NCBI GenBank assembly: GCA_000830295.1
Contig: CP010425.1
Location: 806,884 to 870,883, forward strand
DNA length: 64,000 bases
Reading direction: 5' to 3'
Source of the DNA: an archaeon GW2011_AR15
GTDB taxonomy: Archaea; Nanobdellota; Nanobdellia; Woesearchaeales; GW2011-AR15
Each line of letters starts with the position of its first letter. Positions within the stretch are counted from its first letter, which is position 1. The position numbers and the translations under genes are program-made. Below, one piece after another: positions 31,920-50,052 of the stretch. The notes below the pieces were generated by a model, which did not search any database, was not told the DNA's origin, and saw only the letters and a list, made by a program, of their open reading frames with translations.

Positions 31920-33206
31920 TTAAATGAGATATCCAAGGGAGAGAATTCTTTTTCTGATCTCATCACTTACATCATGCTCCCTTTCCGCAATTCCTATCTT
32001 TTCCCTGAGTTTGTCATTCCTCTGCAAAAACTTGAGGTATTCATCTTCAAATCTTTTGCCCGGATACAGCAGGCTATTTTTTTCAAGAGGGTCATTGGAA
32101 AGGTTGTAGTATTCAAAGTAATCGGGCCTTAATATATATTTTTCAGTTTCAGTCCTTATCGAGATTCCGCCCCTTGTTTCTGTAAAGAGAAATTCATGGA
32201 GCCTGTCTTTTTTTCCTGCAATTAAATCATATGTGCTTTTTCCCTGGAATGTTTTTGGCAACCTGTATCCGAGCGTATGCAGTATTGTTGGTGCGATATC
32301 CAGGGACTGGACCTGGGCAGTGATTCTTTTTACATTTACATCAACTTCTTCAGGAAACCTTATTATCATGGGGACTTTGATTATCTCCTCATACGGGTCG
32401 CCAAGCCCGTGGCCTATTTTTCCGTGCTCCAGGAATTCTTCCCCATGGTCTGATGTGAAAATTAGTATTGTATTGTCCAGAAGTTCAAGTTCTTCCAGCT
32501 TACTATATAACCTTCCAATATACTGGTCATATTCATGCAGCTCAGAATCATAGGCGTTTTTTATTATTTCAACATCACTTTCATTTAATATGCTGAATTC
32601 CTCTTCCTCCCACAAATCAAAATCAGGCTTGCTCATGTTTAGTATCTTGCTCGGCTGGTTGTATACATGAGTGTCATATGAATGTATGAAAAGGAAAAAC
32701 CTCCTGTCTTTCACTTCCTCAAGATGCTTTATCAGCTTTGGGTAAAAATCAGAAAAGGACTGCCCTTCTTCATCATCAAAGAAATCAAATCCTTGGTCGT
32801 ATCCGAAGTCCCTGCTGACAAAAACATCCCCGGTATAGCCGAAGGTGTAGTATCCCTTTCCCCGCAGGAACTTCTGTATTGTCATTGTGTTCGGGTTTAT
32901 GAAATTGTCAACTGAGAGGACGCCGTGTGCTGAGCCGTATAAAGAAGCCAGCATGCTCACATGCGAAGGCAGGGTCCAGTCATAATTCACAAAGGCATTC
33001 TCGAACAATACGCCTTTTTCAGCCAGCCTGTCTATGTTTGGGGTCACATTGCTGTTTCCATAGGCTCCAAGACGGTCTGCCCTTAGGGTATCCTCGGATA
33101 TCAGGATTACATTATACTCCTTTGGCTTTTGGATTACATCTGCAATTACAGTTATAGAGATTACGACAGTTATAAGCAGGAAAAAGAAAATCAGGACTTT
33201 TTTCAT
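31920..33206 (-). CDS. Sulfatase-family (alkaline phosphatase superfamily) enzyme, secreted or anchored
   Basis: Signal/TM, then ILISEDTLRADRLGAYGN metal-binding motif and DWTLPSHVSMLASLY active-site region. C-terminus ...KRILSLGYLI. Confidence 0.7.
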   Translation of the reverse strand: MKKVLIFFFLLITVVISITVIADVIQKPKEYNVILISEDTLRADRLGAYGNSNVTPNIDRLAEKGVLFENAFVNYDWTLPSHVSMLASLYGSAHGVLSVDNFINPNTMTIQKFLRGKGYYTFGYTGDVFVSRDFGYDQGFDFFDDEEGQSFSDFYPKLIKHLEEVKDRRFFLFIHSYDTHVYNQPSKILNMSKPDFDLWEEEEFSILNESDVEIIKNAYDSELHEYDQYIGRLYSKLEELELLDNTILIFTSDHGEEFLEHGKIGHGLGDPYEEIIKVPMIIRFPEEVDVNVKRITAQVQSLDIAPTILHTLGYRLPKTFQGKSTYDLIAGKKDRLHEFLFTETRGGISIRTETEKYILRPDYFEYYNLSNDPLEKNSLLYPGKRFEDEYLKFLQRNDKLREKIGIAEREHDVSDEIRKRILSLGYLI

Positions 33207-35107
33207 TTTAAGAGAGGCTTGCCGTCAATCTGCTCTGGCATACTTATATTCAGGAAATTCAGCACCGTCGGCGCAATGTCAACAAGGCTGGCTGAGTCCT
33301 GATTGATCTGTTTATTTGAAAACAAGACACCAGGCACAAATGTCGGGTCTATAAGATGGTCTCCCTGCCATTTTTTTGTGTTGTCAAGTATTGCATTCCT
33401 CGTGAATCCGCCGATTGCGGACTGCCATTCCATCCTGTATCCCGGATTGAAGCCTATTATGAGGTCAGGGGCATTCTCAAGCGAGTCTCCGGAATAGATG
33501 TCTCCTCTCCTGTAAACCTTATTTATAACTTTCCTTCCTGTTTTTGGGTCTGTCAGATTTTCAAGCTTTTCAATTATCTCATTTTCCACTGCCTCTTTAT
33601 CATCTATGCTTACTGTCCCGTGCTTTTCCCTTCCTTCAAGATTTATGTATATGCTGGAGAAGCCGACAGAATATGCTTTTGTCTCATCCCATATCACATA
33701 CTCAAACAGGCTGTCTTCCACACCCTGCTTTATTACTGTGTTAAGCTTCATGAATCCGTTCTGGGAAAGCCAGGTGTTTATGTTGACAGCGCGCTCAAAT
33801 GAGCTGAATCCGTGGTCTGAAAAAATCAGGACCATGGTGTCATTGCCTACTTCTTTCATTATCTTGCCAAGCAGCTCGTCTTTCCTCATATAGTAGCCTG
33901 TGAGGACCTCATTCATGACAATCTCATCAGAGATGTTGGTCAGCACTTTGTTGTCCCAGAAAAGATGCTGCAGCCTGTCAGATGAATCAAATGCAAATGC
34001 CAGCACACCGGTTTCCTTCTCCTTGAATTCATTGAATTCTTTCCAGAACATGGCTTCCCTTTCCTTTTCTATTTCATAGACCTGGCTGAGGAATGCTTTT
34101 TCATCTAGGAAGCCGTTTACATATCCATCGGTTTCTTCAGGCATCCCTAAAGTGTAATACAGCCCGAGCTCATCTGCCAGCTCCTTTGCATAACCTTTGG
34201 GTGAAGAAATATCAACAATGGGGTTTGTCGGGTCAATCTGGACTGTTGTTATGTACATCTGGAAGGGTTCAGTGCTTATCAGGTATGCCTTGAACATGCC
34301 GTGCACACTCCTGAGGAAACCGGCATCAAACTTCACTTTTACCCAGTCGCTCCATTTCTCCCTGTCCAGCTGGTACTCCCTTCCGTCTATGGTTAGTATG
34401 GCAGAATATTCGTCTGTTATTTCAATATCCATGCCTTCTTTTACGTCCTCTATTTTGCTGAATTTCCTGACTTTTGGGCCGAGGACATTGGTGTGAATTG
34501 ACGAGCCTTCTTTTGTTACATGTATTACTTTCTGCTTGTCTATATCTTCTTCTGTGTAGAAAGCATAGCCGCTCAGGAACCCCTTTATGTCAGGGACTCC
34601 AAGGCCCGAGAACAGGTTTCCATTAACCTTTTCAGGCGGAAAAGTTGCAGGCCACCTTATTACTGAAGTCGGAATTCCTGCCTTGCTTGTAAGTTCCCAG
34701 AAAGGGGTTGCCCTTATCAGAGAGGCATAGCTTCCTCCGAATCCTTTCTGGCTTGTTATTGAAAGCTCAGGGAGGTAGGTCTGCGGATCCCTTATTATGA
34801 AATCAAACATATTGTGCTTCCCAGGATTTGTCCCTGTGGAGATTGAAGTCCAGGCAACAGGGCTTTCAGGAGGATTGCTTGTTTCAAGCTTCAGGAATGC
34901 ACCTGTTTCAGCCAGTTTCTTGAAATTTGGAAGTTTTCCTTCTGCCATAAGCTTGGCAGTTGCCTTATAATCCATGGCATCTATCCCAATAAGAAGAACC
35001 TTGCCTTTTGGACTGATTTTATCTCCCCCCTTTGAAAGCGCAAATATGAAATACAGGATAACTACAATAACCACGACGTTAATAAACCTTTTTAATGCCT
35101 TATTCAT
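33203..35107 (-). CDS. Alkaline-phosphatase-superfamily type I phosphodiesterase / nucleotide pyrophosphatase-like protein
   Basis: N-terminal TM helix, then VLLIGIDAMDYKATAKLMAEGKLPNFKKLAETGA, typical of the Phosphodiest (ENPP-like) family. 634 aa. Confidence 0.65.
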   Translation of the reverse strand: MNKALKRFINVVVIVVILYFIFALSKGGDKISPKGKVLLIGIDAMDYKATAKLMAEGKLPNFKKLAETGAFLKLETSNPPESPVAWTSISTGTNPGKHNMFDFIIRDPQTYLPELSITSQKGFGGSYASLIRATPFWELTSKAGIPTSVIRWPATFPPEKVNGNLFSGLGVPDIKGFLSGYAFYTEEDIDKQKVIHVTKEGSSIHTNVLGPKVRKFSKIEDVKEGMDIEITDEYSAILTIDGREYQLDREKWSDWVKVKFDAGFLRSVHGMFKAYLISTEPFQMYITTVQIDPTNPIVDISSPKGYAKELADELGLYYTLGMPEETDGYVNGFLDEKAFLSQVYEIEKEREAMFWKEFNEFKEKETGVLAFAFDSSDRLQHLFWDNKVLTNISDEIVMNEVLTGYYMRKDELLGKIMKEVGNDTMVLIFSDHGFSSFERAVNINTWLSQNGFMKLNTVIKQGVEDSLFEYVIWDETKAYSVGFSSIYINLEGREKHGTVSIDDKEAVENEIIEKLENLTDPKTGRKVINKVYRRGDIYSGDSLENAPDLIIGFNPGYRMEWQSAIGGFTRNAILDNTKKWQGDHLIDPTFVPGVLFSNKQINQDSASLVDIAPTVLNFLNISMPEQIDGKPLLK

Positions 35108-35298
35108 TTTTTGCTGTTCTTCAGTCTCTTTATTATGTTTTTTACAGGGTTTATTATCAGGAAGGCTATGACTGCCCCCAGAACAGCCACAATCGTCTGC
35201 CAGAAAGAGCCGATTATAATCCCGCCGGTTCCCGGGTCAATGTATGCGTAGCTACTGTGAACTAACAATATGAAAATCACTAAATATGTCCCCCACAT
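35104..35298 (-). CDS. Small two-TM membrane protein (64 aa)
   Basis: 4-nt overlap with the downstream NPP-like gene suggests translational coupling. Mostly hydrophobic, with a YIDPGTGG motif. Confidence 0.3.
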   Translation of the reverse strand: MWGTYLVIFILLVHSSYAYIDPGTGGIIIGSFWQTIVAVLGAVIAFLIINPVKNIIKRLKNSKK

Positions 35299-35337
35299 TT
35301 GTATTTAAGTTACCCGAGGAGTATTTAAACGTTTTGA

Positions 35338-36615
35338 TTGGTTTTGATGAAAGAATATTTAAAGAGAGAAAATTTAGTTTGTGAAATGGAATTCAAGAAA
35401 GAAATATTACTTTTCCTTATTTTTATACAAATTGTTGCAGTTTTATTTCTTGGATTTAATATGGTAAAAGACACTTATTTATCAAATAATTCTTATAAAT
35501 GTAAAGAATGCAATATAGTACTCATAATTATAGATACAGTGAGAGCAGATCACATTAGCTTTTATGGTTACCATAAAAATACAACACCTAACTTAGATAG
35601 TCTCGCAAAGAAAGGAGTTTTTTTTAACCAGGCAATTAGCCAGGGGTCCTGGACAGCGACATCAGTACCTTCTTTAATTACCTCCAGATACCCTTCGACA
35701 ATCGAGGTTTACCTATTTTCAGATACGAATATATTAGCAAGAGAGATACCAACTCTCCCAAAGGTATTGCAAAAAAAAGGTTATAGAACAGCGTTTATCA
35801 GTTCTCACCCACTTCTGTTTGTAGAAGAGGTAGGTATGTTTGAAACATTCATAAAATCCGATGGTGCTAAGGCAGATAACTTAACAAACGAGGCAATTCA
35901 ATGGATCAGAGAAAATGGTGAAGATAGATTTTTTCTACAACTACATTATATGGATGTGCATGATATTCCTTTCTTTGGTAATCAAACTACCTTGGAAGAA
36001 GGCATCTCAATGTATGATGAAGCACTTACATTTACCGATTCAAACATAAACAGACTTATAGAAGAACTTAATAAACTAGGCATAGAAGATAAAACGATTA
36101 TAGTTTTTACATCAGACCATGGAGAGGGGATAAATGACCACGAACAACTGTTTGAACATAGTGCATACTTGTATGATTATTTAATAAATGTTCCACTAAT
36201 AATCTACAATCCAAAAGCAAAAATTACAGGATACAACGTAGATTGTCAAGTTCAGCTTGTGGATATTGTTCCAACCATGTTAAATATTCTAGGAGTAAAA
36301 GAACAAGAGTCATTTCAAGGTAAAAACTTATTCCAATACACTCAATTTGATGTTTGTACAGACTCTTCAATTAGTGAGCACATACAATTTGAGTTTTATC
36401 CTGATGATGCAATATACCTTTATGAACTTAAATCGTTTAGGGTTGGTAAGTGGCATCTAATACAAAACCTTAGCTCAGAAAAAGAACCATTTGAATTGTA
36501 TAATCTAGAAGAAGATGCCAGAGAATTAAATAACCTTATAGATAATTATACAGAGCTTAAACCAGAGTTAAATACTGAAATAATAAAAAGAATAGAGAAC
36601 AGAACTTTAATCTAG
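35338..36615 (+). CDS. Sulfatase-family enzyme (alkaline phosphatase superfamily)
   Basis: LIIIDTVRADHISFYGY metal-binding motif and SQGSWTATSVPSLITSRYP active-site region. The start may be the internal Met (MEFKKE...). Confidence 0.7.
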   Translation: MVLMKEYLKRENLVCEMEFKKEILLFLIFIQIVAVLFLGFNMVKDTYLSNNSYKCKECNIVLIIIDTVRADHISFYGYHKNTTPNLDSLAKKGVFFNQAISQGSWTATSVPSLITSRYPSTIEVYLFSDTNILAREIPTLPKVLQKKGYRTAFISSHPLLFVEEVGMFETFIKSDGAKADNLTNEAIQWIRENGEDRFFLQLHYMDVHDIPFFGNQTTLEEGISMYDEALTFTDSNINRLIEELNKLGIEDKTIIVFTSDHGEGINDHEQLFEHSAYLYDYLINVPLIIYNPKAKITGYNVDCQVQLVDIVPTMLNILGVKEQESFQGKNLFQYTQFDVCTDSSISEHIQFEFYPDDAIYLYELKSFRVGKWHLIQNLSSEKEPFELYNLEEDARELNNLIDNYTELKPELNTEIIKRIENRTLI

Positions 36616-37782
36616 GTTTTTTACTAACTCATAATTCTCCTTATTCTCCATCAGATTATCACATGTTTTGAGGCAGCCGACTTTTTCCACAAACCCAGGG
36701 TGTTCCTTTAGATTAACTCCTATCTGCCTGAACATCTTCTGCTTCTGTCCGTTCCAGATATCTCTGAATCTTTGTCTATTAATGTTTCCAGTAGCCACCA
36801 TAACTCCACGGCAGCACGGCGCAACATCTCCGTTTGCCATTATCCTTGAGAAAGTCCAGCCGACGGTGCAAGGAACCTTGTATATGATGTTGCTGTCGTA
36901 TCTGCCTGTTGTCACTGTACTGTTCGAGATCCTTCTCAGAAAATTATCCGGGTTGTCGATTTTTAGATCCCCATAGTGACCTTTATGGTATTTTTCATAA
37001 ATCCTTGCAAAGCTCTTTTTCAGCTCTTCCTGCTGTTTTTTGTTTAAAAGAAGAGAATCTGTCTCTCCGTCAATAGGATCAACCATCGTAAGGTAGACTT
37101 CACTTGCCTTGACTTCTCTGGCAAGCTCTATCATTTTTTCTATCTCTTTATAATTCAGGTTTGATATAACATTGGCAATAACAACTTTTGTTTTCCTGTT
37201 TATTGTACTGAAATACATCAAATTCCCCTTAATCCTGCTGAATGCTTCTTCTGTCTGGTTGGGATGTGTTTTCGCGTATGTTTTGGGAGTGGCTGCCCAG
37301 AGGCTTACAGTAAGATTATCCACCCCGTATTCTACTAATGTATCCAGTTTCTTTTTGTTCATTAAGGAGAAGTTGGTTGTTATATCAAGCCTGATTCCCC
37401 TGCTCTTTATCAGCTTTACAATCTCCATTATTTGAGGGTGTATGAAGGGCTCGCCGCCCCCCGTCAGCCGAATTTCCTCTGTTTTTAGCTCTTTCAGGTC
37501 TTCTACAAGCTGCTTTATTGTCTCAAACGGAAGCTGCTGCCTGAACCATTCTTCTTCAGGCTTTTTTTTGTTTAACATAGGAGAATAAGTCCAGCAGGCA
37601 ATGCAGTTGAGGTTGCACTTGTTTGTTATGTCTATTACAACATATTTTGGGCCAAGAGAGGCATTAAATTTCCTGTTTTTTATCTCGCTTATTCTAATAC
37701 TGGCATGATTTTTTTCATTTGCTAAATTCCTTTTAAACAGCTTTAGCTGCGATTCCAGATAAGATACCATAGATAAATACAA
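36607..37782 (-). CDS. Radical SAM/SPASM-domain protein (paralog family member 4), candidate anaerobic sulfatase-maturating enzyme
   Basis: VIDITNKCNLNCIACWTYSPML, GGEPFIHP, C-terminal PCTVGWTFSRIMANGDVAPCC...GCLKTCDNL. Convergent with, and overlapping, the 3' end of the sulfatase gene. Confidence 0.7.
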   Translation of the reverse strand: MYLSMVSYLESQLKLFKRNLANEKNHASIRISEIKNRKFNASLGPKYVVIDITNKCNLNCIACWTYSPMLNKKKPEEEWFRQQLPFETIKQLVEDLKELKTEEIRLTGGGEPFIHPQIMEIVKLIKSRGIRLDITTNFSLMNKKKLDTLVEYGVDNLTVSLWAATPKTYAKTHPNQTEEAFSRIKGNLMYFSTINRKTKVVIANVISNLNYKEIEKMIELAREVKASEVYLTMVDPIDGETDSLLLNKKQQEELKKSFARIYEKYHKGHYGDLKIDNPDNFLRRISNSTVTTGRYDSNIIYKVPCTVGWTFSRIMANGDVAPCCRGVMVATGNINRQRFRDIWNGQKQKMFRQIGVNLKEHPGFVEKVGCLKTCDNLMENKENYELVKNLD

Positions 37783-37882: not shown

Positions 37883-39016
37883 ATGAGTCTGGCAAATATT
37901 GTCAATAAAACGCTCTTGCTTGGAGTAGGGTTATCATTACTAGTGAATGCAGCATGTTCGCCTGTTCAGGCACAGAATAACCCAAGCGCTACAGAGACAA
38001 GACCTGCAGTCACAGCCACATACACTCCAACAGCTATCCCTACAAACACAGCTACAGCCACGCCTGAGCCAATTTATCAGGAAGTACAGGGCGTTAGGGT
38101 GCCTACAAATGTAACTATAGAAGAAGGTATTCCAATGATGATACAGGGAGAAGAGAAATTAATCAATTATTTCTGGTATGGGGAAGCAGGACAGAATTTT
38201 TCAAGAGACTTAGAGCTAAGCGGAAATGTGTATGTTATTGGAGATGTCAATGCGCAGAATGTAACTTGTGTGAATAGCCCACAGGTTTATGTTGATGCTA
38301 ATCATGATGTACAGGACCTCTATGCGCATTATGGAGAAGCACACCAAAGGTCAGGAATAAACAATGAATACGAAATCTTAGAAGGAGTTCATAGAGGAGA
38401 ACCTTTTTATGATGAAGAAAACAAAATATCTATGACTTTTAATGGGTTTCTTGATTGTATAGGGATTAACCAAGAATATCCAGTTTTACTAACATCAGAT
38501 GCAGCTGAGCCTACAAGATGGGACTGGAACTTTTTTCAATATAAAGGGATAATACAAAATGCGATTATTGAGTATGGCAGATCTGTTGAACCAGGAGATA
38601 ACACCGAAATAAGTTATAGTATAATTAGACACATGGGCGGAGGATCTATAGTTACATGGCATAATAAAAATGTTGTTATTAAGAATAACACACTCTACGA
38701 TACTAACCATGAGCTAATAGATATCCATCATTCAGATGTAGAGATTATAGAAAACGATATAGGGCCAGCAGTTAATGGCACTATAATGCGACCAGGCATA
38801 ATTTTAGATTTAGAAGAAGACGGATTTGTTACAATCTATGGGAATAAGATACATGATAATGGAATAGGGATATTTTTTCTCAGTCAACCTAGAGAGGTCC
38901 CAGACATTAGTGGAAATACTTTTTATAATAATTTAACTGATTTAGAGTATGAAGAGAATGGAATTATCCTTAATGAATTTTTAGAGGAGTGGATTACATC
39001 AAACTATTTTGAATAG
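37883..39016 (+). CDS. Secreted Thr/Pro-linker surface protein with a predicted right-handed beta-helix C-domain
   Basis: Signal peptide with a lipobox-like ...LLVNAACS. TATYTPTAIPTNTATATPEP linker. Repetitive N/G/I-rich segments. N-terminal ~150 aa nearly identical to the 59734-60891 product. Confidence 0.55.
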   Translation: MSLANIVNKTLLLGVGLSLLVNAACSPVQAQNNPSATETRPAVTATYTPTAIPTNTATATPEPIYQEVQGVRVPTNVTIEEGIPMMIQGEEKLINYFWYGEAGQNFSRDLELSGNVYVIGDVNAQNVTCVNSPQVYVDANHDVQDLYAHYGEAHQRSGINNEYEILEGVHRGEPFYDEENKISMTFNGFLDCIGINQEYPVLLTSDAAEPTRWDWNFFQYKGIIQNAIIEYGRSVEPGDNTEISYSIIRHMGGGSIVTWHNKNVVIKNNTLYDTNHELIDIHHSDVEIIENDIGPAVNGTIMRPGIILDLEEDGFVTIYGNKIHDNGIGIFFLSQPREVPDISGNTFYNNLTDLEYEENGIILNEFLEEWITSNYFE

Positions 39017-39038: not shown

Positions 39039-40499
39039 TTATTTGTATAAATAATTCATTGCATGCCTCAACGTATACCCCAACCCATGCTCCCTCAAAC
39101 AATCAAAGAACAGTTTAACAGGCGTTTTATTCTTGTATCTCTGCTGCTTAATCTTGTGGTCATGCCATCTGCTATAGGCGTATCTCTGCGCTCTGGTTAA
39201 ATCCTCAGAACTCAGTGTTTCAGTCCTTATGACGCTCATTGTGTTGCCGTCATAGTTTGAGAAATTTTCATTCACGATCATTCCCTGCTTTTTGAGCATA
39301 TCATAAAACTTAGTGCCGGGGAAAGGTGTCATTATAGAGAACTGGACTGATTCAGGGTCAATGAAAAGAGCATAATTAACAGTCTGGTTAATTGTTTCTC
39401 TTGTTTCTCCTGGTAGGCCAAGAGTAAATGTGAGGTGCATCTTTATTCCCAGCTTTTTTGTAAGCTGCATGTTCCTTGTAGCAACTTTTAGATTAAGATT
39501 CTTTTCAGCAGCATCCACAATCTCCTGAACACCGGATTCAACTCCATATTTGACAGCAGCCAACCCTACTTCTTTTAATCTTACAAGAATTTCTTCATCT
39601 ACTATATCTGAGCGGCCCATGAATGCCCATGGAGTGTTCCAGTTCCTTTTCTTCAGCTCATCAGCGAGCTCAAGCATTCTTTTTTTCCCAATATTAAAGG
39701 TATCGTCGTCAAAATAGACTGATTTAAAGCCAAGCTTTTTGACACAATATTCCATTTCGTCTACAACTTCTTTTACATTCCTTGCCCTGTAATTCCTGCC
39801 GCTGTAGACAAGCTGAGGCCAGACGCAGAAAGTGCAAAGATAAGGGCATCCCCTTGTAGCTATCATCTGGACGCTTGGGAAAGGTATGCCACCTGGACAG
39901 TCATGGTATTTGTAAATTGGGAAGTCAACCCTGTCAGGCCATGGATATTCTTCTAATGGCTTTCTTTCTGTTCTTCTTTCATTCACGACAATTTTATTCT
40001 TATTCCTGAAAACCAGGCCAGGTATCTTATTAAGGGGTTTTTTGTTTTCCAGGTTCTGGACCAGTTCAAGCAGAGTAAACTCATATTCTCCTACAAGGGC
40101 AAAATCAATATTAGGGTTTTCTTCCATGAATTTTTCATTAAAGATATCCATATCAGGGCCGGCAATCGCAATCTTGCACACGGAAAAAGCTTTTATCTGC
40201 TCTATCAGCTCTAAATCATGCTTTAGGGAGGGAGTTGAAACCTCAACAAACAGCACATCAGGGTCAAATATCTTTAATTGCCTGAAAAATTCAGCATAAC
40301 TCATATTATCTGCAATTGCATCAATGGCTTTTACATTAACATTGTGTTTTTTTAATAAAGAAGTTGAATAGGCCAGGAAAAAAGGAAAAGGAAGATATCC
40401 TTCTTCTTCAGTTATCTTTAGATGGGGCCACCTGCTGCCTGCCCTGACACCCTGTCTACCCCCCACAGTCCATGGCATATTTGCCAGTAGGATTTTCAT
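39039..40499 (-). CDS. Cobalamin-binding (class B) radical SAM protein
   Basis: ATRGCPYLCTFCVWPQLVYSGRNYRAR. N-terminal MKILLANMPW...GSRWPHL class-B signature. Confidence 0.75.
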   Translation of the reverse strand: MKILLANMPWTVGGRQGVRAGSRWPHLKITEEEGYLPFPFFLAYSTSLLKKHNVNVKAIDAIADNMSYAEFFRQLKIFDPDVLFVEVSTPSLKHDLELIEQIKAFSVCKIAIAGPDMDIFNEKFMEENPNIDFALVGEYEFTLLELVQNLENKKPLNKIPGLVFRNKNKIVVNERRTERKPLEEYPWPDRVDFPIYKYHDCPGGIPFPSVQMIATRGCPYLCTFCVWPQLVYSGRNYRARNVKEVVDEMEYCVKKLGFKSVYFDDDTFNIGKKRMLELADELKKRNWNTPWAFMGRSDIVDEEILVRLKEVGLAAVKYGVESGVQEIVDAAEKNLNLKVATRNMQLTKKLGIKMHLTFTLGLPGETRETINQTVNYALFIDPESVQFSIMTPFPGTKFYDMLKKQGMIVNENFSNYDGNTMSVIRTETLSSEDLTRAQRYAYSRWHDHKIKQQRYKNKTPVKLFFDCLREHGLGYTLRHAMNYLYK

Positions 40500-40523
40500 A
40501 GAGGTAGTGAAAGAGAGAGAGTT

Positions 40524-41549
40524 TTAAATATGTTTCTGAATTATTTCTATTAATCTAGTTAATGGCTTCTTCCCAAGCTCTTTTTTTCTTTCCTGAACAT
40601 CATACAGACAGTTTACTAAGAAATGACAATTTTCTTTGCATGTGCTTGCTTTTTTTCTTGCATGAGAAAAATCTCCGTAATAGATCTCCATTGGACTATC
40701 TCTTATTATGTTCCCGGCAGGCATTTCTTTTATGCATCCATGAACGTCTCCTGTGTAAGAAACAGCAAAATTGTTGGTGCCAGCAGGGCATTTTATCTCC
40801 AAATCTGCTTCAGGATTGAGAAAATACTGTATATATTTATCAAATTGGGATGCAGGGTTGGATATTTTGGCACCCTCCAATTTTCTCCTTTTCAGATACT
40901 TCATAACCTGTATTATAACTTCCCTGTCTTTCGGCCATAATGGATCATTTTTCCACCATTGTTTGCCCCCATTATGAGTTAACACTTGATTGTATGCCTG
41001 GAAATGGATGTAATTAATTGGCAATTTTTCTGTTATCCACTCAACAAATTCAGGAATATCATATATGTTATCTTCTAAAATGATTGCTGAAATACCTATA
41101 CTTAATTCTGGTTTTAACTCTTTTAAGTAATTTATGGCTTTCACACATTTCTCGAATAAATCAGGTATACCTCTCATCCTATTATGTTTCTCAGCAAAAC
41201 TGTCTATAGAAAAATCAATATGGCTTATTCCTGCTTCTATAAGTCTCTCACAGTTCTTCTCTGAAAGCAAGCTTCCGTTTGTAACAATAGAAACAATAAT
41301 TCCAAGTTCTCTTATCCCCCTGATAACAGCATATAAATCTTTATACATGAACGGCTCTCCACCGCCGATACAGACATGCTCTACATCAGAAAATCTCTTA
41401 AGGTCTCTTGCGGTTCTGATCCAGTGCTCTGCAGGAAGTATTTTCTCATTATAAATCGGGTTTTCCCATATCTTACAGAAATCGCATCTGGCGTTACAAA
41501 CACCATTAATCTGGAAATCAACCCTTATTTTCGGTCTTTTTCTATCCAT
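40524..41549 (-). CDS. Radical SAM protein
   Basis: RVDFQINGVCNARCDFCKIWENP CxxxCxxC, CIGGGEPFMY. C-terminal Cys pairs (CPAGTNN...HGC, CKENCHFLVNC) suggest an auxiliary cluster. Confidence 0.65.
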   Translation of the reverse strand: MDRKRPKIRVDFQINGVCNARCDFCKIWENPIYNEKILPAEHWIRTARDLKRFSDVEHVCIGGGEPFMYKDLYAVIRGIRELGIIVSIVTNGSLLSEKNCERLIEAGISHIDFSIDSFAEKHNRMRGIPDLFEKCVKAINYLKELKPELSIGISAIILEDNIYDIPEFVEWITEKLPINYIHFQAYNQVLTHNGGKQWWKNDPLWPKDREVIIQVMKYLKRRKLEGAKISNPASQFDKYIQYFLNPEADLEIKCPAGTNNFAVSYTGDVHGCIKEMPAGNIIRDSPMEIYYGDFSHARKKASTCKENCHFLVNCLYDVQERKKELGKKPLTRLIEIIQKHI

Positions 41550-43247
41550 CTACCGCTCCACAAACCTCAGCAAGTCATAATTTAGTGCAGCATCTACCAT
41601 CATTGTGTTCTGGTCATGATTGTCACAGGAATCGCAATAATCGTCATATAACAATCTGCCATATAATGTGAGGGGGTTCTCTTTATGCATAATTAACCCG
41701 TCATTCCTGTATCTGGTATATGCATCTGAAAGCCAGACATCTTTCAGGCCAGAGCCGTCTTTCTCCAGCAGCCCAATCATCCTTGCACCGCAGCACATGA
41801 AAACCTCTCTTCTTAGTGATACATAAGTAAAGCACCAGCCGACATAGCACCCCTGGCTCAATAACCCTTTGTTTCCCCAGCTTCCGGAATTCTTATCATA
41901 ATGTTTTATCTCAAATTCAATGAAGGAGTGGAACTCAATCCCTATCTCTTTGCACACTTCTCTGGCCTTTTCGAGCTCTTTCTTCACAAAATCCATATCA
42001 CTTTTTTTCATATATAGCTTGTCCACGCTGAAATTCTCCAAATGGACAAGCTGATACCATATCTTGTCAGCTCCGATTTTCTTTGCATGATAGGCCATGT
42101 CAACGATTTCTGTAAAATTATACTGATTTATCACATAAAGTGCCTGTATAAACGGATGTCTTACATTATGATCTTTTTTTAACTGCGATAACTCTAAGAT
42201 ATTGTCCTCTATTTTCTTCATTAGCTTAAGTGGGGAATTTGGCCTTACAAGTTTCCATGATTTTTCAGATGCATAAGACAAAGAAACATTTATTGATTGA
42301 CAATTGCCATATTCCACAATCTGTTTTTTGTATAGATGAAGCATTGATCCGTTCGTCACCAAATCTAAGTTTAACCCCAAATCCTTTGTAATCTTTAATA
42401 TCTCACCAAACTGAGGATGCATTGTCGGTTCTGCTCCTCCAACAAGAAAAACATTTTCGGCGCCAAGCTCTTTTGCCTCTTTTAATGAATTCTCCACAAT
42501 TTCTATATCCAGCATCCCAAATAGCTCCGAGTGCTGGTCATCCCAGTATTTTTTATTCCATGGAGAGAATTTTCTGCAATAGACGCAGTCAAGGTTGCAC
42601 TTTCCGCTTAAATCCAGAAGAATATTTTCCGGCCCGCTAAAAACGTCTTTGACAACAGGACCTAATGTTCGCAGGAATGCGCCCATATTAAACCCTGTAC
42701 TTCTGGAGTTATTTTCTATGACTGAAAGCAGCTCGTCTAGCTGGCTGTCTATAATCCTGAATTCTATGCCCTGCTTTAGACAGGCCCTGCTTAAATTACT
42801 TAGATAGGCATAAAACCGGGATTTTATATCCACTAATGGGAGAATGTTAAATTTAGGGATGTCTGCATTTTCTCCTTTAATTTCCATAACCAGCCCTATT
42901 ATCCTATAAAGCCTGTGAAAGTTTGTTCTCCTTATTCCGATTATAATATGGTGCTCCTGATTCTTTGAGACGGCTTCTTTTAATTTATCTACTTGTTTGA
43001 AAAAATCATTTTCATCCAGATCAACACCCCATCTGTGGTTTTCTGATGTGTCGCCGCACAAGTAGATTAAAGGTATGTTTTTTGAACTTGGCAGAGGAAA
43101 CTTTCTATCCTCTATATTTTCATATTTTCCTATCACATCAAGCTTTTCAGAATATTTTATGATATCCGGATAGGTAGGTATTCCTTTTTTTGCAATCTCC
43201 CTGACTTCCGGAGGTATTATAATCTTACCCGAACCATAGATTCCCAT
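41550..43247 (-). CDS. Radical SAM/SPASM-like protein with a ~200-aa N-terminal extra domain
   Basis: LLDLSGKCNLDCVYCRKFSPWN (same CxxxCxxC-x-x-SP signature as the paralog family). C-terminal QGCYVGWCF...FMCCGARMIG. Stop abuts the start of the next radical SAM gene. Confidence 0.65.
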   Translation of the reverse strand: MGIYGSGKIIIPPEVREIAKKGIPTYPDIIKYSEKLDVIGKYENIEDRKFPLPSSKNIPLIYLCGDTSENHRWGVDLDENDFFKQVDKLKEAVSKNQEHHIIIGIRRTNFHRLYRIIGLVMEIKGENADIPKFNILPLVDIKSRFYAYLSNLSRACLKQGIEFRIIDSQLDELLSVIENNSRSTGFNMGAFLRTLGPVVKDVFSGPENILLDLSGKCNLDCVYCRKFSPWNKKYWDDQHSELFGMLDIEIVENSLKEAKELGAENVFLVGGAEPTMHPQFGEILKITKDLGLNLDLVTNGSMLHLYKKQIVEYGNCQSINVSLSYASEKSWKLVRPNSPLKLMKKIEDNILELSQLKKDHNVRHPFIQALYVINQYNFTEIVDMAYHAKKIGADKIWYQLVHLENFSVDKLYMKKSDMDFVKKELEKAREVCKEIGIEFHSFIEFEIKHYDKNSGSWGNKGLLSQGCYVGWCFTYVSLRREVFMCCGARMIGLLEKDGSGLKDVWLSDAYTRYRNDGLIMHKENPLTLYGRLLYDDYCDSCDNHDQNTMMVDAALNYDLLRFVER

Positions 43248-43272: not shown

Positions 43273-44436
43273 TTATATATGTTTCTGTGATAAATCTCTC
43301 TTATACAATTTTAACAGCCTGTCAGCAACAATCTCCCACCTGAACATCCTCTCGGCCCTTTCTCTTGCCTTTTTCTCCAGTTTTTTCCTTAAGGCTTTGT
43401 TTTTCAATAGTTTCATTACCTTATCAGCCATTTCTTGATAGTTTCCTGGTTCATACAACAATCCTGCATCTCCAAGCATCCAGGGAATTTCTCCGACATT
43501 GCTTGCTACAATGGCCTTTCCGGATGCCATGTACTCAGCTATCTTTAAAGGGGATTTGCATCTCTGCTGCTTTGTATCGGCAAAACTGCCGACAACAACA
43601 TCTGCAGCAGCAAGATATTCATTAACTTCTTTTCCAACTGCAAATCCGGTAAAAATGATCTCTTTCTGCAAGCCCATTTTCATTACAATCATGTTAAGCC
43701 TTGGAAGGTCCTGCCCGCCTCCGACAATCATAAATTTCGCTTTTGGCATTTTTTTTAGTATTAATCTGGCAGAGCGTATAAACTGCTGGGCATACTGGGC
43801 GCCGTGAAGCTGCCCAAGATACAGCACAACAGGGTTTTTCTCAATTTTGTATTTTTTCCTTACATAAGCGCCGGGGTATTTTGGGCTGAACCTGTCCAGA
43901 TCAGCGCATACATTTGCCTTTACAATCCTGCTTTCAGGAAAGCCCATCTCTAAAACCATGCTTCTCAGCTCTTCGCTCGCTACAGACACAGAATCAACAA
44001 GCTTAGGCAGTAGCTTTTCCATCACATTAAGGTACCATCCGTAGATTCTTGAAGGCGGTGAGAACATGTATATGCCGTATTCCCAGTCATCCCAGTCATA
44101 GTGCACAGGCTTATTATTAACATAAGCAGAGAATATCGCAGGAATTGAGGCAATTGAAAAGCATTTCTGGAAATGAATCACATCGGCCCATTTCCCGAAT
44201 TCAGCCATTTTTTTCATATTTGAGAACAAATACCATTTGCTCCTGTTAAAAGGAATTGTTTCATATTCTGTTATTTTTTCCTTTAGTTTCCCTCTCTCTT
44301 TTCCAGAAAGTGGGAAATATACAAGCTTTACCCTATGGCCTTTTTTGACAAATTCATGGGCAATGGAAGTTATTCTTATTGTCCATGGCTCTGAGGCAGA
44401 GTAGATGTCGTGCGGGTGGATTATTAAAATATTCAT
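43273..44436 (-). CDS. GT4-family glycosyltransferase
   Basis: GT-B with C-terminal group-1 signature (...KSPLKIAEYMASGKAIVASNVGEIPWMLGDAGLLYEPGN...). Confidence 0.7.
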   Translation of the reverse strand: MNILIIHPHDIYSASEPWTIRITSIAHEFVKKGHRVKLVYFPLSGKERGKLKEKITEYETIPFNRSKWYLFSNMKKMAEFGKWADVIHFQKCFSIASIPAIFSAYVNNKPVHYDWDDWEYGIYMFSPPSRIYGWYLNVMEKLLPKLVDSVSVASEELRSMVLEMGFPESRIVKANVCADLDRFSPKYPGAYVRKKYKIEKNPVVLYLGQLHGAQYAQQFIRSARLILKKMPKAKFMIVGGGQDLPRLNMIVMKMGLQKEIIFTGFAVGKEVNEYLAAADVVVGSFADTKQQRCKSPLKIAEYMASGKAIVASNVGEIPWMLGDAGLLYEPGNYQEMADKVMKLLKNKALRKKLEKKARERAERMFRWEIVADRLLKLYKRDLSQKHI

Positions 44437-44476: not shown

Positions 44477-46120
44477 TTATCGGACTATTTCACCAGAAAT
44501 AGTATTAAACATTTTCTTCTCCTCATTATCTAATATGTTGTACAATTGATTAACCAATTCATAGGAAGGTATCAATTCATCGGTTAGGAATGCTAGAAAA
44601 AATTTTTTTTTATCTTCAGAATTCAAAGTATTTAATATTTCCCTAATTTGAGCAGTATATGGCATCTGTTTACCTCCAATATCAAAACCCTTTATAATTC
44701 TTCTACTCATTCCACTGAGATAAGCTTCTTTAATAACTGTATCTTTATCTATTTCATTATAGAATTTCATAAAGATAGCGGGAGCCATCACATAGTTAAA
44801 CCCTGCCTCGAAGACATTTGCTTCCGTATAACTTCTTATTTCTCTGAAAACACCAGGATTATATCTGCCAAACTGTAATGTTGAAAAAAAACCAACACTC
44901 ATTATTAGCACACAAGCTATAAAAAGAGAGTAGGAAATTTTTTGTAATTTAGAACCAGCTATTAATTGTCCAATACATAAGCTTGTGATTAAAAATAATA
45001 AGGGATGGAAGAACAACAGATAATACCCATCATTAGGATCCATAGAGTTGAATTTTGGATTATCACCCGGCGGTGGATTCATAATATTGAAAACTAGGAA
45101 ACAAATAAAGAAATATAATAGAACTAACATGAAAAACTGTTTTCCCTTTTTCTTTTTATTATCAATTGTTCCAGATATCTTAATATCTTTAAAAGAACTG
45201 AAACCTAAAAAAATTAATGAAATAACTATAAAATAGAAGGTATAGGACAATAGTGGTGCCTTAATAATAAGAAAATCCAAAAAATGAAAGGATCGTGGAA
45301 GATACAAGACCAAGAATGAGATCATTCTTTCTGCAATTCCAGAGAAAAGAGTGCCAGTTACAAACTGCGGATTAAACAGATTATAGATTAGAGGATCGGA
45401 GAAAATACTTGGAAAACCATAGCTTATATTGTAAATTATCCAAGGCAGAAAACCAATTAAAAAAGAAATTGGCAGGATTATCAAATTTCTAAACTCAATA
45501 CTCCTTATATACATAAATACTAGTATAATAATGAGCAGAATAATTGATATGAACCCGTACTGCACCCATAGCCCAAGTCCAGAAACAAACCCAAGCAATA
45601 TAAAATTTTTCATATGCCTATCATTATCAATAAAAATTTTAGTTATGAGAGTCATGGCAAGCATAATAAACAAAACAAACACCATAGAGTTGCCAAGTAT
45701 CATAACACTTTTTTGAAGGAAATGTGGAGTTCCCAATATAAAGAAAATTGAAAATATAATAATTACAACTTCAGAAAAATACTTTTTTAATAGATTTAGA
45801 CATAAAAGAAAAACAATTAAAGAGTTAAATATTGCAGCCATTTTTAAAGCCAGAAGAGTATTTCCGAATATTAGATAGAAAGGTATTATCTCAATCTGTG
45901 CCAGCAAGTGTCCTCCTGAATGAGGCGAGTCAAGATATCCCCACATAGGCACTCTTAAACCCCTGTTAAACACAATATCATAACCTAGAGAAGAGGTTTT
46001 TACTTCTTCAGGGTTGTATATATAAGGACTATAAAATAAGAAGAGTAGTCTTGATATTATAAATAACACAATTAAAATTATCATTAGTTTGTTTCTGCTG
46101 ATATTTGAAAAATAATCCAT
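44477..46120 (-). CDS. Polytopic membrane protein (>=12 TM) with a C-terminal soluble domain, possible GT-C glycosyltransferase or polymerase
   Basis: 547 aa, almost entirely hydrophobic helices. No confident motif recognised. Confidence 0.45.
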   Translation of the reverse strand: MDYFSNISRNKLMIILIVLFIISRLLFLFYSPYIYNPEEVKTSSLGYDIVFNRGLRVPMWGYLDSPHSGGHLLAQIEIIPFYLIFGNTLLALKMAAIFNSLIVFLLCLNLLKKYFSEVVIIIFSIFFILGTPHFLQKSVMILGNSMVFVLFIMLAMTLITKIFIDNDRHMKNFILLGFVSGLGLWVQYGFISIILLIIILVFMYIRSIEFRNLIILPISFLIGFLPWIIYNISYGFPSIFSDPLIYNLFNPQFVTGTLFSGIAERMISFLVLYLPRSFHFLDFLIIKAPLLSYTFYFIVISLIFLGFSSFKDIKISGTIDNKKKKGKQFFMLVLLYFFICFLVFNIMNPPPGDNPKFNSMDPNDGYYLLFFHPLLFLITSLCIGQLIAGSKLQKISYSLFIACVLIMSVGFFSTLQFGRYNPGVFREIRSYTEANVFEAGFNYVMAPAIFMKFYNEIDKDTVIKEAYLSGMSRRIIKGFDIGGKQMPYTAQIREILNTLNSEDKKKFFLAFLTDELIPSYELVNQLYNILDNEEKKMFNTISGEIVR

Positions 46121-48084: not shown

Positions 48085-50052
48085 TTATTTATTAATTTCC
48101 CACCTGCTGTCCAGATAAACAATGCCTAAATCTCTTATCTCCCTGCTCTTTACTTCAAACGAGTATCTCTTATCATGCAGGTCATAAGGCGTGAATGAAT
48201 TATACGGATGGACAGCAGCACTAACCAGGTAGGTCCCTTCCAGCAAAGGCAGCTTATCTATGATATAGGAGACGCTCCCTTTTCCCTTAACATAGGGGAT
48301 TTCAATATTGTGGAATTTAGTATTCGGCCCTGTTATCTGCGTTCCGTCATCTCCATGGATTGTTATGCCGAAAACAGGCTTTTCAACCTTCTTTTCAGCA
48401 TCAAACATAATTTTTATCTTGACCTGTTCCCCGGTATAAAACAACTCTTTATGCTCTTCTTTTGAATCCAGAAAAACCACATTTGTTATCCTGACAGGTC
48501 TCTGTTCTTTCTCATCATCCTCTTTTACTGATATTGATAATTTTGTTAATTCTTTCCTAAATTCAAGCAATCTCTCCAGTTCTTTTTCTATTTTTTTCTT
48601 TTCAGCCGGTTTTGCCTCTTCTAGCTCAAGCTTATGCACACTAATTAGTTCATGCAGCTCGTGCAGATGTGTTCTTATAATACCGGATATCTGGTTCTCG
48701 TTATCTTCAGGGTCAAAATGCGGGACAGTTTTGAGCATATTTTTGCATTCTTTTATTGAATGGATTATAGAAGCAAACTCAGAGTTATCTATCCTGAGTG
48801 AGATCAGGAAGTCAAACATATATTTCCGCAGATAGACCGCGCTTGGCTTGTCAACATGATTGAATCCCTCTTTGTATCTGGCAAACACTCTGGAAATAAC
48901 TTCTTCCCTTTCCTTTTCTGCTGTCTGCAGCTGGACTTCCATCTCCAGCAGCCTTATTCCCAGAAGTATCTCTTCAAACTCAAAAGATTTTTTTGTAACA
49001 GCCTGCTTTATAGTCAGCGCTTCCTGCGCCTGCTTCAGGTTCTCCAGCAATTCCTTTTTCTGCTGGGGAGAGAAATTCTTTACTTTGTTTTCCAGCCAGA
49101 CATAATTCTTGTCAGGAAGAATGATAAGCATGTCGCACAGGTCAATAAGCTGTGATCTTAAGGTTGCTTCCCGATATCCCAATGATTCCAGCTGCTTTTC
49201 CAGCCTGCTTCCCATGAAACTGTCTATAATAGGGAGATTGATTTTTCTTTTCAGATCTTTTCTTAATTTTTGAGTTTCATCTGAAACTGAAAGATATGAT
49301 TTGAAATTCTTCTTCAGCAAAAAGTAATTGTAAACCCTTTCTGATTTTTCGCTGTGATTCAGATAATCCAGTATAACTTTCTGCGCAACTCCCTGGCTTT
49401 TCACGACTCCGTGCTCAAGAAAAATTGCCCTGTCACAGATTTCCCTTACTGTTGACATGTCATGGCTCACAATGACCATTGTTTTTCCCTGCTCTTTCAT
49501 TATCCTTATCCTGTTCAGGCTTTTTTTCTGGAATTCCTCATCACCAACTGCAAGAATCTCATCTATCAGGATCACTTCAGGGTTATTTGACATTGCTATT
49601 GCAAAAGCCAGCCTGAGCTTCATGCCTGTGGAGTAATCTTTAAGCTTGACATTGATGAATTTTTCAAGCTGCGAGAAGTCTACTATCCTGCTGAAATTCT
49701 TCTTTATCTCAGAAGTGCTCATCCCAAGTATTGAGCCATATAAAAAGACATTTTCCTTCCCAGTCAGTTCCTCCCTGAACCCAGAGCCTGTATCAAGGAA
49801 AGTCAGCACTTTTCCGTTTACTTTTACATTTCCTTTTGTCGGAGACAAAATTCCCGCGATTACCTTGAGAAGGGTTGTTTTTCCTGAGCCATTCGGGCCG
49901 ATTATGCCAAGGCACTCCCCTTTTTTCACAGCTAAATTAATGTTCTTCAGGGCATAGAAATCTTCTTTTTCTGATTTTCCAATAAGCATGCTGTCTTTTT
50001 CATGGATCAGGTTAAATTTCTTAGACACGTTTTTCAGTTCTACAGTATTCAT
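48085..50052 (-). CDS. wzt: ABC transporter ATP-binding protein, Wzt/TagH-type polysaccharide exporter ATPase with a long C-terminal extension
   Basis: Walker A GIIGPNGSGKTTLLKVIAG, signature LSGGMK-like YSTGMKLRLAFA, Walker B ILIDEILAVGDEEF. ~400-aa C-terminal region with a coiled coil and a terminal beta-rich domain. 4-nt overlap with the Wzm gene. Confidence 0.75.
   Translation of the reverse strand: MNTVELKNVSKKFNLIHEKDSMLIGKSEKEDFYALKNINLAVKKGECLGIIGPNGSGKTTLLKVIAGILSPTKGNVKVNGKVLTFLDTGSGFREELTGKENVFLYGSILGMSTSEIKKNFSRIVDFSQLEKFINVKLKDYSTGMKLRLAFAIAMSNNPEVILIDEILAVGDEEFQKKSLNRIRIMKEQGKTMVIVSHDMSTVREICDRAIFLEHGVVKSQGVAQKVILDYLNHSEKSERVYNYFLLKKNFKSYLSVSDETQKLRKDLKRKINLPIIDSFMGSRLEKQLESLGYREATLRSQLIDLCDMLIILPDKNYVWLENKVKNFSPQQKKELLENLKQAQEALTIKQAVTKKSFEFEEILLGIRLLEMEVQLQTAEKEREEVISRVFARYKEGFNHVDKPSAVYLRKYMFDFLISLRIDNSEFASIIHSIKECKNMLKTVPHFDPEDNENQISGIIRTHLHELHELISVHKLELEEAKPAEKKKIEKELERLLEFRKELTKLSISVKEDDEKEQRPVRITNVVFLDSKEEHKELFYTGEQVKIKIMFDAEKKVEKPVFGITIHGDDGTQITGPNTKFHNIEIPYVKGKGSVSYIIDKLPLLEGTYLVSAAVHPYNSFTPYDLHDKRYSFEVKSREIRDLGIVYLDSRWEINK

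Follow-up and report, generated by a model that had tools for sequence, protein, structure and literature searches.

A run of three radical SAM genes

We describe here three adjacent radical S-adenosylmethionine (SAM) genes in a 64,000-nucleotide stretch of the genome of the archaeon GW2011_AR15 (GenBank assembly GCA_000830295.1, contig CP010425.1, positions 806,884 to 870,883 of the forward strand); this whole stretch is referred to as the window, and all coordinates are numbered from its first base. The genes lie head-to-tail on the minus strand and encode, in order, proteins of 565 aa (41550-43247), 341 aa (40524-41549) and 486 aa (39039-40499), and the listing of open reading frames (ORFs) places them exactly where the initial annotation of this DNA had put them. 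The translations contain all the motifs on which that annotation relied: the 486-aa protein has GSRWPHL and CPYLCTFC, the 341-aa protein CNARCDFCKIWENP, and the 565-aa protein both IPLIYLCGDTSENHRWGVDLDEND and HIIIGIRRTNFHRL. The stop codon of the 565-aa gene was also said to abut the start codon of the 341-aa gene, and it does so with zero bases between them (...GAG CGG TAG ATG GAT...; the junction CGG TAG ATG is at 41547-41555, minus strand).

The 341-aa and 486-aa genes are separated by 24 bp. Immediately upstream of the 565-aa gene, at a distance of 25 bp and in the same operon, is a GT4 glycosyltransferase gene (43273-44436, minus strand; Pfam Glycos_transf_1 and Glyco_trans_1_4), and this is preceded, with a gap of 40 bp, by a gene (44477-46120, minus strand) whose 547-aa hydrophobic product is, judged by its sequence, apparently a multi-pass membrane protein and has no Pfam or NCBIfam match. 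These five genes thus form one tight minus-strand run that extends from 46120 to 39039.

Catalytic modules of the three proteins

All three proteins belong to the radical SAM superfamily. Each exceeds the cutoff (29.5 bits) of the Pfam Radical_SAM model PF04055, with scores of 47.6, 93.7 and 63.6 bits for the 565-aa, 341-aa and 486-aa proteins, and each contains a cluster-binding motif (CNLDCVYC, CNARCDFC and CPYLCTFC respectively); none reaches any NCBIfam equivalog cutoff.

The 565-aa protein is made up of an N-terminal region (residues 1-206, 42630-43247) that we refer to as the N-domain, a radical SAM core (residues 207-445, 41913-42629; Pfam match at residues 214-344) and a C-terminal Fe-S domain (residues 446-565, 41553-41912), all encoded on the minus strand. 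The core carries the cluster motif C217-x3-C221-x2-C224 (42576-42599) followed by a GGAEP SAM-binding motif, and its three cluster cysteines are invariant in 33/33 homologues. The same is true of five cysteines in the C-terminal domain (C467, C485, C486, C538 and C541), which also contains the motifs RYRNDG...H...E and CDSCDNHDQN. The initial annotation called this a SPASM-type enzyme, a label that fits poorly: no match to SPASM (PF13186) is seen in the protein at E<=0.01 (some of its homologues carry a weak precomputed match). A SPASM domain has a C-terminal motif of 7-8 cysteines and two auxiliary clusters, and a twitch domain has one cluster (PMC9012708); since only five cysteines are invariant, enough for one auxiliary cluster, the domain is better described as twitch-like.

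In the 341-aa protein the cluster motif (C18-x3-C22-x2-C25, 41475-41498) and the C-terminal auxiliary cysteines C254, C272, C304, C308 and C314 (40608-40790), together with C60, are invariant in 20/20 homologues. Its SPASM match (PF13186, 22.6 bits) is just above the cutoff of 21.5, and its five invariant C-terminal cysteines plus C60 compare with the canonical 7-8, so we refer to it as SPASM-like. The 486-aa protein has a B12-binding-like domain (residues 43-146, 40062-40373) followed by a radical SAM domain (residues 212-376, 39372-39866). The B12-binding match (PF02310, 29.5 bits) is just below the cutoff of 32.1, and the domain order and many partial matches to class-B NCBIfam models agree with it. 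The best NCBIfam model is HpnJ (TIGR03471; 261.6 bits, E 1.4e-77, residues 20-446); this score is less than half the cutoff of 577.6, and the protein is not an HpnJ equivalog.

An AlphaFold2 (AF2) model of the whole 565-aa protein has a predicted local distance difference test score (pLDDT) of 90.2 and a predicted TM-score (pTM) of 0.88, and its best fold matches in PDB are DesII, BlsE, SkfB, viperin, SuiB, PqqE, anSME and MoaA. The best PDB sequence match of the core is to the tetraether synthase GDGT-MAS (E 4.7e-6).

An unassigned N-terminal domain

The first ~200 residues of the 565-aa protein had been described as a domain that could not be assigned, and this description stands. Residues 1-205 have no Pfam or NCBIfam match, the NCBIfam matches to the protein beginning only at residue ~200, and searches of the region by profile and structure, which the initial annotation had proposed as a check, give no significant match in Pfam, NCBIfam, PDB or Foldseek comparisons. 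Pfam scans of ten diverse N-domains yield nothing consistent even at E<=10, a profile search of PDB sequences yields nothing significant (best E 0.12), and Foldseek yields nothing at E<=0.001 against either PDB or BFVD. Nor is the region a separate or mis-called ORF: the frame is unbroken and has its first start codon at 43247, the region and the radical SAM core form one chain in all homologues, and AF2 models the whole protein as one compact unit.

Several specific identities were considered and set aside. No recognizable B12-binding domain is present, with no PF02310 match at E<=10 in the ten diverse N-domains, no cobalamin-domain structure among the Foldseek top 50 in PDB, and a probability of 2-5% when hhalign is used against a 15-sequence B12-domain profile (a positive control gives 98.4%); a methyltransferase domain likewise finds no match in Pfam, NCBIfam, the PDB profile search or Foldseek. 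The N-domain has no PqqD-type or RiPP recognition element (RRE)-type Pfam match. DesII also has an extra domain before its core, composed of six helices (PMC11434129), and the two are not equivalent, the DesII domain being all-helical whereas the N-domain is a three-strand alpha/beta structure. A relationship to PAPS-reductase/CysD was pursued because of a weak Pfam match (PF01507, in the window copy only; E 0.019, 15.5 bits, cutoff 22.5) and a reciprocal weak profile match; hhalign aligns only 21-24 columns (helix, strand and G-[IV]-R-R) with 11-18% probability and there is no PP-loop, and we reject homology. The CysD-like strand and G-x-R-R motif are nonetheless a hint that the N-domain might bind phosphate or sulfate.

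The AF2 model of the isolated N-domain, built from a 36-sequence alignment, has a confident core (residues 80-200 mostly with pLDDT >90), and the domain contains three parallel beta/alpha units with strands at residues 60-63, 100-105 and 161-165. It begins with a conserved PGKxxLPPE peptide (residues 6-14) and ends with LGPVxKDVFxGP, which leads into the radical SAM core. Residues 1-60 have block-mean pLDDT values of 39-69 when the domain is modelled alone versus 65-89 in the full-length model, and the models suggest that the N-terminal segment and the N-domain pack against the radical SAM core.

The family includes a second clade, at only 27% identity, and H71, F82, R107, N109, D167, L170, G196, F203 and P206 are invariant across both. 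The polar residues among these (His, Arg, Asn and Asp) lie directly after the three strands. The position just after parallel strands is the classic ligand site in alpha/beta folds, and from the placement of H71, R107, N109 and D167 we therefore infer a binding or catalytic pocket. The N-domain is single-copy in the window and is rare elsewhere, phmmer finding only 36 clusters at E<=1e-3 among 1.84 billion (1.84e9) representative proteins. In five of the six proteins for which Pfam coordinates were checked it ends fewer than 10 residues before the radical SAM core; the sixth (P0041) has a B12-binding domain between the two. It thus constitutes a new and sharply defined domain family with four invariant polar residues, and is an obvious target for structural and biochemical study.

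We also note that some relatives have two tandem N-domains before a single radical SAM core (P0030, at 7588-9864 of locus L014, and the gene at 3161-4996 of L025). In the second copy of these tandems the HRWG and RRTNF motifs are degenerate (GHTAESHAIIG and GVSRNNF).

The N-domain may have originated as a radical SAM half-barrel that decayed, in which case it would be what is left of a former third module (a pseudo-radical-SAM domain) after loss of the cysteines; such an origin would be compatible with ligand binding at present. The best sub-threshold structure matches of the N-domain are indeed enriched for radical SAM cores in two independent libraries, with DesII, SkfB, SuiB and PqqE among the PDB matches (E 0.017-1.4, Foldseek probability up to 0.92) and about 10 of the top 50 BFVD matches being radical SAM proteins or Fe-S oxidoreductases. 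Alignment by eye places the loop that follows strand 1 (T-x3-H71-x-W73-G74) on C-x3-C-x-aromatic-C, the family occurs in multi-radical-SAM fusions, and in P0030 the N-domain is itself duplicated. The pseudo-radical-SAM proteins (TIGR04347) provide a precedent for radical-SAM-like domains without cluster cysteines; in our searches the TIGR04347 'pseudo-SAM/SPASM' model matched the true radical SAM core of the 341-aa protein and not the N-domain. Unlike those proteins the N-domain has only three beta/alpha units and no profile similarity to radical SAM, with hhalign probabilities of <=1.1% against three radical SAM profiles (the 341-type module, the 565-type core and mixed radical SAM N-terminal halves), and homology to radical SAM cores is not detectable by such profile comparison. 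The TM-scores of the structure matches are only ~0.3 with root-mean-square deviations (rmsd) of 7-12 A, and any beta/alpha repeat will resemble part of a TIM-like barrel. We regard a half-barrel origin as unlikely.

The 341-aa and 565-aa proteins and their fused relatives

The 565-aa protein is 100% identical to P0001, which is labelled 'radical SAM protein [Ca. Woesearchaeota archaeon]' and is encoded on a contig of 1.16 Mb. Most of its homologues are larger, at ~900 aa, and it aligns with their C-terminal part at 45-77% identity over 99-100% of its own length. At least 20 homologues in this identity range are ~900-aa chains in which a 341-like module is followed by the N-domain and the radical SAM core, with a conserved linker (...NCYFPLHWKRW...VYKPGK) between the 341-like radical SAM/SPASM module and the N-domain, and with ...FVER at the chain end. 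In the 928-aa fusion P0002, for example, residues 28-346 are 57% identical to the 341-aa protein and the remaining C-terminal part is 77% identical to the 565-aa protein; identities between the 341-aa protein and the N-terminal modules of fused relatives range from 48 to 57%. Both window proteins are therefore orthologous to parts of the ~900-aa family, the 565-aa protein matching the C-terminal two-thirds of the fused enzyme and the 341-aa protein being the orthologue of its N-terminal module. Because the two are usually a single protein, in most relatives the 'N-terminal' domain lies inside the chain, between the two modules.

In the window genome the usual fusion is thus split, with its halves swapped, the 565-aa gene being first and the 341-aa gene second. 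The identical order 565, 341, 486 is present on at least 24 contigs from several independent metagenomes, and since both this order and the junction recur the split is real and not an artefact of assembly or a frameshift. No remnant of the linker is found in the 21 in-frame codons upstream of the 565-aa ORF. Read-through or recoding of the TAG at the junction would not recreate the fusion, as the fused relatives have the opposite order (341 then 565).

Other arrangements of the same parts are also found. In L003/L012, L014 and L027 the pair is split but keeps the usual order, the gene for a ~330-aa radical SAM protein preceding that for an N-domain radical SAM protein. In the closest relative, L025, a GT4 gene is followed by the fused gene, whose stop codon abuts the start of the next gene (TAA-ATG); this next gene is the L025 paralogue with two N-domains mentioned above. 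A further protein, P0044 (694 aa), appears to have a 341-type module, an N-domain and a twitch-like C-terminus with ~70 residues in place of the ~260-residue second radical SAM core, and may be either a natural deletion variant or an assembly artefact. For purposes of annotation the 565-aa and 341-aa genes are best treated as one functional unit, and the label 'radical SAM protein' hides a specific and recognizable family.

The surrounding locus and its relatives

The three genes are part of a larger array, with 13 radical SAM modules between ~10 and 43 kb of the window. They are carried by five proteins of the SPASM/twitch type (402, 404, 472, 391 and 341 aa), by the 565-aa protein, by four single B12-type proteins (702, 479, 467 and 486 aa) and by a 1433-aa triple B12-type protein. 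Interleaved with them are genes for six glycosyltransferases, a PMT_2 protein, two AsnB-like proteins, CysD, an arylsulfotransferase, sulfatase- and phosphodiesterase-family proteins, a carbamoyltransferase and the polysaccharide exporter Wzm/Wzt. The latter, identified by Pfam, comprises Wzt (an ABC ATPase with a Wzt_C glycan-binding domain, the latter scoring 89.7 bits) and Wzm (an ABC-2 permease) at 48085-50675 on the minus strand, and Wzm, Wzt and the six glycosyltransferases all lie in one locus.

Two other segments, also identified by Pfam, belong to the same system. The 391-aa protein (36607-37782, minus strand) is a radical SAM/SPASM paralogue, and a first run of radical SAM genes occupies 10055-29636. 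This first run encodes the 402-, 404- and 472-aa radical SAM/SPASM proteins, the 702-, 479- and 467-aa B12 radical SAM proteins and the 1433-aa triple, with a GT2 gene, two AsnB-like genes and the PMT_2 gene interspersed; homologues of all its genes are present in the related loci, where many occur in fusions with each other or with modules of the 341/565 type. The 1433-aa protein (18829-23130, minus strand) has three tandem B12-binding plus radical SAM modules, and its relatives have at least four such modules per chain (2098-2105 aa in L003/L012).

We ran BLAST comparisons of the window proteins against ORFs from all six frames of 18 related loci and against matches in a representative library. 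These modules are also present in Omnitrophota, Caldisericota, Pseudomonadota, Thermoanaerobaculia, Methanosarcinales and Woesearchaeota. The Methanosarcinales loci L003/L012 contain nearly the whole locus, including Wzm, Wzt, GT2, AsnB, the 486-aa and 391-aa types, a phosphodiesterase-family gene, CysD, arylsulfotransferase and the triple B12 radical SAM protein, as well as the 472, 404 and 402 types. A homologue of the 486-aa protein is present in 9 of ~15 related loci. With 13 radical SAM modules within ~45 kb of the window and the gene set syntenic in ~15 other loci, the clustering is not due to chance.

Fusions among these modules are common. The 341 and 565 types are fused in at least six loci, the 486 and 565 types in L008 (1332 aa), and the 472, 404/402 and 391 types in L001, L007 and L009; in L010 a single 2390-aa ORF combines 341, 565, B12 radical SAM and 472-type modules. 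Other fusions extend beyond the radical SAM proteins. L011 has both GT4+391 and GT2+341+565 fusions, P0063 joins GT4_387 (a full-length GT4 homologue, 42% identical) to an N-domain radical SAM protein, P0055 joins the Wzt nucleotide-binding domain to one, and in P0041 the N-domain and a B12 radical SAM module are joined to Wzt_C. These Rosetta-stone fusions therefore link the three genes to one another, to the adjacent glycosyltransferase and to the polysaccharide exporter, and the pattern of fusion and fission predicts which enzymes work together.

Among the relatives, the GT4 gene is kept beside the fusion gene in L001, L025 and L017, and the 27%-identical N-domain clade sits among GT4, GT2, PMT_2 and B12 radical SAM genes. 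In L026 the gene for the N-domain protein of this clade has ten radical SAM genes in a row after it, and in L005 a polyprenyl synthase gene adjoins the 565-type gene. Two sets of extensions were suspected of being carbohydrate-binding modules, the N-terminal ones of ~140 aa in P0023, P0028 and P0032 and those of ~300 aa in the Omnitrophota 486-type proteins; Pfam gives no match to either.

A possible role in tailoring of a surface glycan

The explanation that we favour, with a probability of roughly 0.6, is that the three genes form one block of a mobile radical-SAM-rich locus that tailors a surface glycan exported by Wzm/Wzt, with the 341-aa and 565-aa proteins being the halves of an enzyme with two active sites. 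The locus is conserved and, on this explanation, horizontally mobile, and its product is most likely such a tailored, Wzm/Wzt-exported glycan. The abutting stop and start codons may provide translational coupling, and hence 1:1 assembly of a 341/565 heteromer; the co-translated proteins would then form the same two-active-site enzyme that the relatives make as a single chain. Because each half has an intact CxxxCxxC site and a C-terminal auxiliary Fe-S domain, we infer two successive 5'-deoxyadenosyl-radical steps. These could act on one sugar or glycan intermediate, made by the adjacent GT4 protein and destined for Wzm/Wzt export, and might be, for example, an oxidation, epimerization, dehydration or C-C bond formation. 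The N-domain would be an alpha/beta accessory domain, peculiar to this family, that packs against the second radical SAM core, and its His/Arg/Asn/Asp pocket may hold a substrate handle such as a nucleotide, a polyprenyl-diphosphate or an anionic sugar; alternatively the domain may position the partner module. The 486-aa B12-type enzyme might carry out a further step, such as C-methylation or rearrangement.

The nearest solved folds of the 565-aa core include sugar and nucleotide enzymes (DesII, BlsE, viperin and MoaA), in support of this explanation. Other observations weigh against it. The peptide enzymes SkfB, SuiB, PqqE and anSME match the core fold about as well, and because the matches mix the two classes fold similarity does not fix the class of substrate. 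The 565-type genes of L004/L016 have neither a 341-type gene nor any other radical SAM gene within 8-10 kb, so the 341/565 pairing is not obligatory. Finally, every member of the family is metagenomic and has no functional name.

Comparison with better-characterized enzymes shows both similarities and differences. DesII (8HZV/8HZY), BlsE (7VOB), BtrN, viperin and MoaA share with the 565-aa protein the radical SAM core with its CxxxCxxC motif (E 8e-13 for the 565-aa model versus DesII; E 1e-11 versus BlsE, with an rmsd of 4.6 A over 330 columns), and BtrN and MoaA resemble it further in having a twitch-type C-terminal domain with one auxiliary cysteine set (PMC9012708). The enzymes of the DesII group share only 13-20% identity with the 565-aa protein, which comes close to no NCBIfam equivalog cutoff, and none of DesII, BlsE, BtrN, viperin and MoaA has two radical SAM modules as the 341/565 pair does. 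We also know of none of these five that is encoded in a Wzm/Wzt polysaccharide locus. SuiB, PqqE/PqqD and SkfB are built on the same logic as the 565-aa protein, with a radical SAM core preceded by an accessory domain and followed by an auxiliary-cluster domain, and their core folds are comparably similar to it (E ~1e-11). In these maturases of ribosomal peptides (RiPPs) an accessory domain is reused on different cores, as the N-domain is here on twitch-type and B12-type enzymes. Unlike the RiPP maturases, the system described here has no RRE/PqqD signature, no precursor peptide was found, and the fusion partners are glycosyltransferases and exporter parts. The 486-aa protein shares with HpnJ/BchE-type enzymes the order of a B12-binding-like domain followed by a radical SAM domain, and unlike the HpnJ setting there are no hopanoid genes in the locus.

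A broader version of the surface-glycan explanation is advanced only tentatively, and we consider it less likely than not. The N-domain could be the glycan-pathway counterpart of a RiPP recognition element, a portable domain (possibly a decayed radical SAM half-barrel) that recruits twitch- and B12-type cores to a lipid-linked or nucleotide-linked sugar. The locus would then be a 13-module 'radical assembly line', coupled to glycosyltransferases and Wzt, that makes a heavily C-modified, sulfated surface polysaccharide and that has been exchanged between DPANN/methanogen-related archaea and Omnitrophota-type bacteria. Membership of the radical SAM superfamily is itself clear; what is new is the combination of a probable glycan-tailoring role for radical SAM enzymes, an undescribed accessory domain and multi-module fusion and fission, and a literature search, incomplete in its coverage, found no description of a system of this kind. 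To our knowledge, sugar tailoring by radical SAM enzymes has been described for a few individual enzymes of antibiotic biosynthesis. The presence of 13 radical SAM modules fused to glycosyltransferases and exporter components suggests that there may be a much larger and unexplored radical chemistry of surface glycans in uncultured anaerobes. These include the DPANN archaea, whose cell surfaces mediate an episymbiotic lifestyle.

A different view of the N-domain is that it serves purely as a structural spacer or for docking, keeping the 341-type module against the second core, and has no ligand role. In the fused proteins it does lie exactly between the two radical SAM modules, and only in the model of the whole protein are the PGKxxLPPE peptide and residues 1-60 ordered. 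Proteins and loci without a 341-type partner (P0019, P0022, P0034 and the P0052-54 clade) nonetheless keep the domain with its invariant His/Arg/Asn/Asp residues, the domain is present on a B12-type radical SAM enzyme in P0041, and a passive linker would not typically have invariant charged or polar residues where its strands end. We therefore think it quite unlikely that the N-domain is a spacer alone.

We have also considered that the locus matures a RiPP, in the style of a proteusin, sactipeptide or ranthipeptide, with the N-domain as the leader-peptide recognition element. RiPP pathways rely heavily on SPASM/twitch radical SAM enzymes (PMC9012708), SkfB, SuiB and PqqE are among the best fold matches, many of the partial NCBIfam matches are to RiPP maturases, and the locus has AsnB-like genes and a small conserved ORF at 35107-35304. 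This ORF resembles a hydrophobic membrane peptide and not a leader plus core precursor, however, the N-domain has neither a PqqD/RRE-type nor any other Pfam match, and no peptidase or leader-cleaving transporter is seen among the Pfam-scanned window ORFs or the called genes of related loci. The main argument against this explanation, and against modification of a lipid, comes from the fusions to glycosyltransferases and exporter parts: GT4, GT2, the Wzt ATPase and Wzt_C are all found joined to N-domain radical SAM proteins, and the locus is framed by six glycosyltransferases and Wzm/Wzt. A RiPP product is thus very unlikely.

It is similarly improbable that the enzymes modify a lipid (a polyprenyl carrier, or a membrane-spanning or hopanoid-like lipid) and not sugars, for while GDGT-MAS is the best PDB sequence match of the core (but only at E 4.7e-6), HpnJ is the model nearest to the 486-aa protein, PMT_2/GT-C-type membrane proteins are present in the locus and L005 has its polyprenyl synthase, the scores are far under the family cutoffs (27 versus 450 bits for Tes, 262 versus 578 for HpnJ), HpnJ itself acts on the sugar part of the hopanoid, the fusion partners are glycosyltransferases, the ATPase of the polysaccharide exporter and the glycan-binding domain of that ATPase, and the hosts span Archaea and Bacteria, whose membrane lipids are unrelated.

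Other features of the window

The two radical SAM runs are separated by a sulfation block (29866-36615). In it are an arylsulfotransferase-family gene (29866-31065), CysD (31067-31873; so named from its homologues), a phosphodiesterase-family gene and a pair of genes of the sulfatase family; CysD, the arylsulfotransferase and the phosphodiesterase are also found in synteny in L003/L012. The adjacent 391-aa radical SAM/SPASM protein was considered as an anaerobic sulfatase maturase and this is not supported, as there is no anSME model among its best 25 NCBIfam matches; the adjacent sulfatase-family protein, its translation read by eye, appears to have no Cys/Ser-x-Pro-x-Arg motif. Upstream of the 634-aa phosphodiesterase-family gene is the small hydrophobic ORF noted above (65 aa, 35107-35304, minus strand), which has no Pfam match and has a 44% identical counterpart at the same position in the Methanosarcinales locus L003 (11025-11222).

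Two paralogous beta-helix/NosD-like genes, at 37883-39016 on the plus strand and 59734-60891 on the minus strand, are inverted relative to each other and face one another, and their products have signal-peptide-like N-termini. The pair is 58% identical overall, with N-terminal halves far more conserved than the C-terminal halves, and an inverted repeat within the genes is located at 38000-38433 and 60341-60774. They bracket a ~21.9-kb segment that includes the three radical SAM genes, the GT4 gene, the carbamoyltransferase, Wzt/Wzm and three more glycosyltransferases. Contig L024, which is 98.8% identical to the window, joins window positions 43417->37893 directly to 60353->61224, the junction expected if the ~21.9-kb segment had been inverted in another population through recombination within the repeat. 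Such an inversion would, in addition, exchange C-terminal halves between the two beta-helix proteins.

A 103-nt segment beside the second beta-helix gene (59606-59708, plus strand) is an inverted copy of the 3' end of the 486-aa gene (39043-39145), with 82% complementarity. It translates to ...YRYKNKTPVKLFLDCLKEHGFGYTVRHTYKYLK compared with ...RYKNKTPVKLFFDCLREHGLGYTLRHAMNYLYK in the real 486-aa gene, with stop codons upstream. From this it looks like a gene-end relic, with a block composed of the 486-aa 3' end and the beta-helix gene having been duplicated in inverted orientation.

Lastly, Rfam identifies a tRNA gene of 126 nt at 62836-62961 on the minus strand (RF00005, 51.7 bits), with an implied intron of ~50 nt, that is missed by ARAGORN. 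This feature points to an archaeal origin of the DNA and is in line with the Woesearchaeota label at NCBI. The tRNA gene overlaps the annotated 5' end of a MiaB-like ORF (61556-62884), whose true start is probably further downstream.

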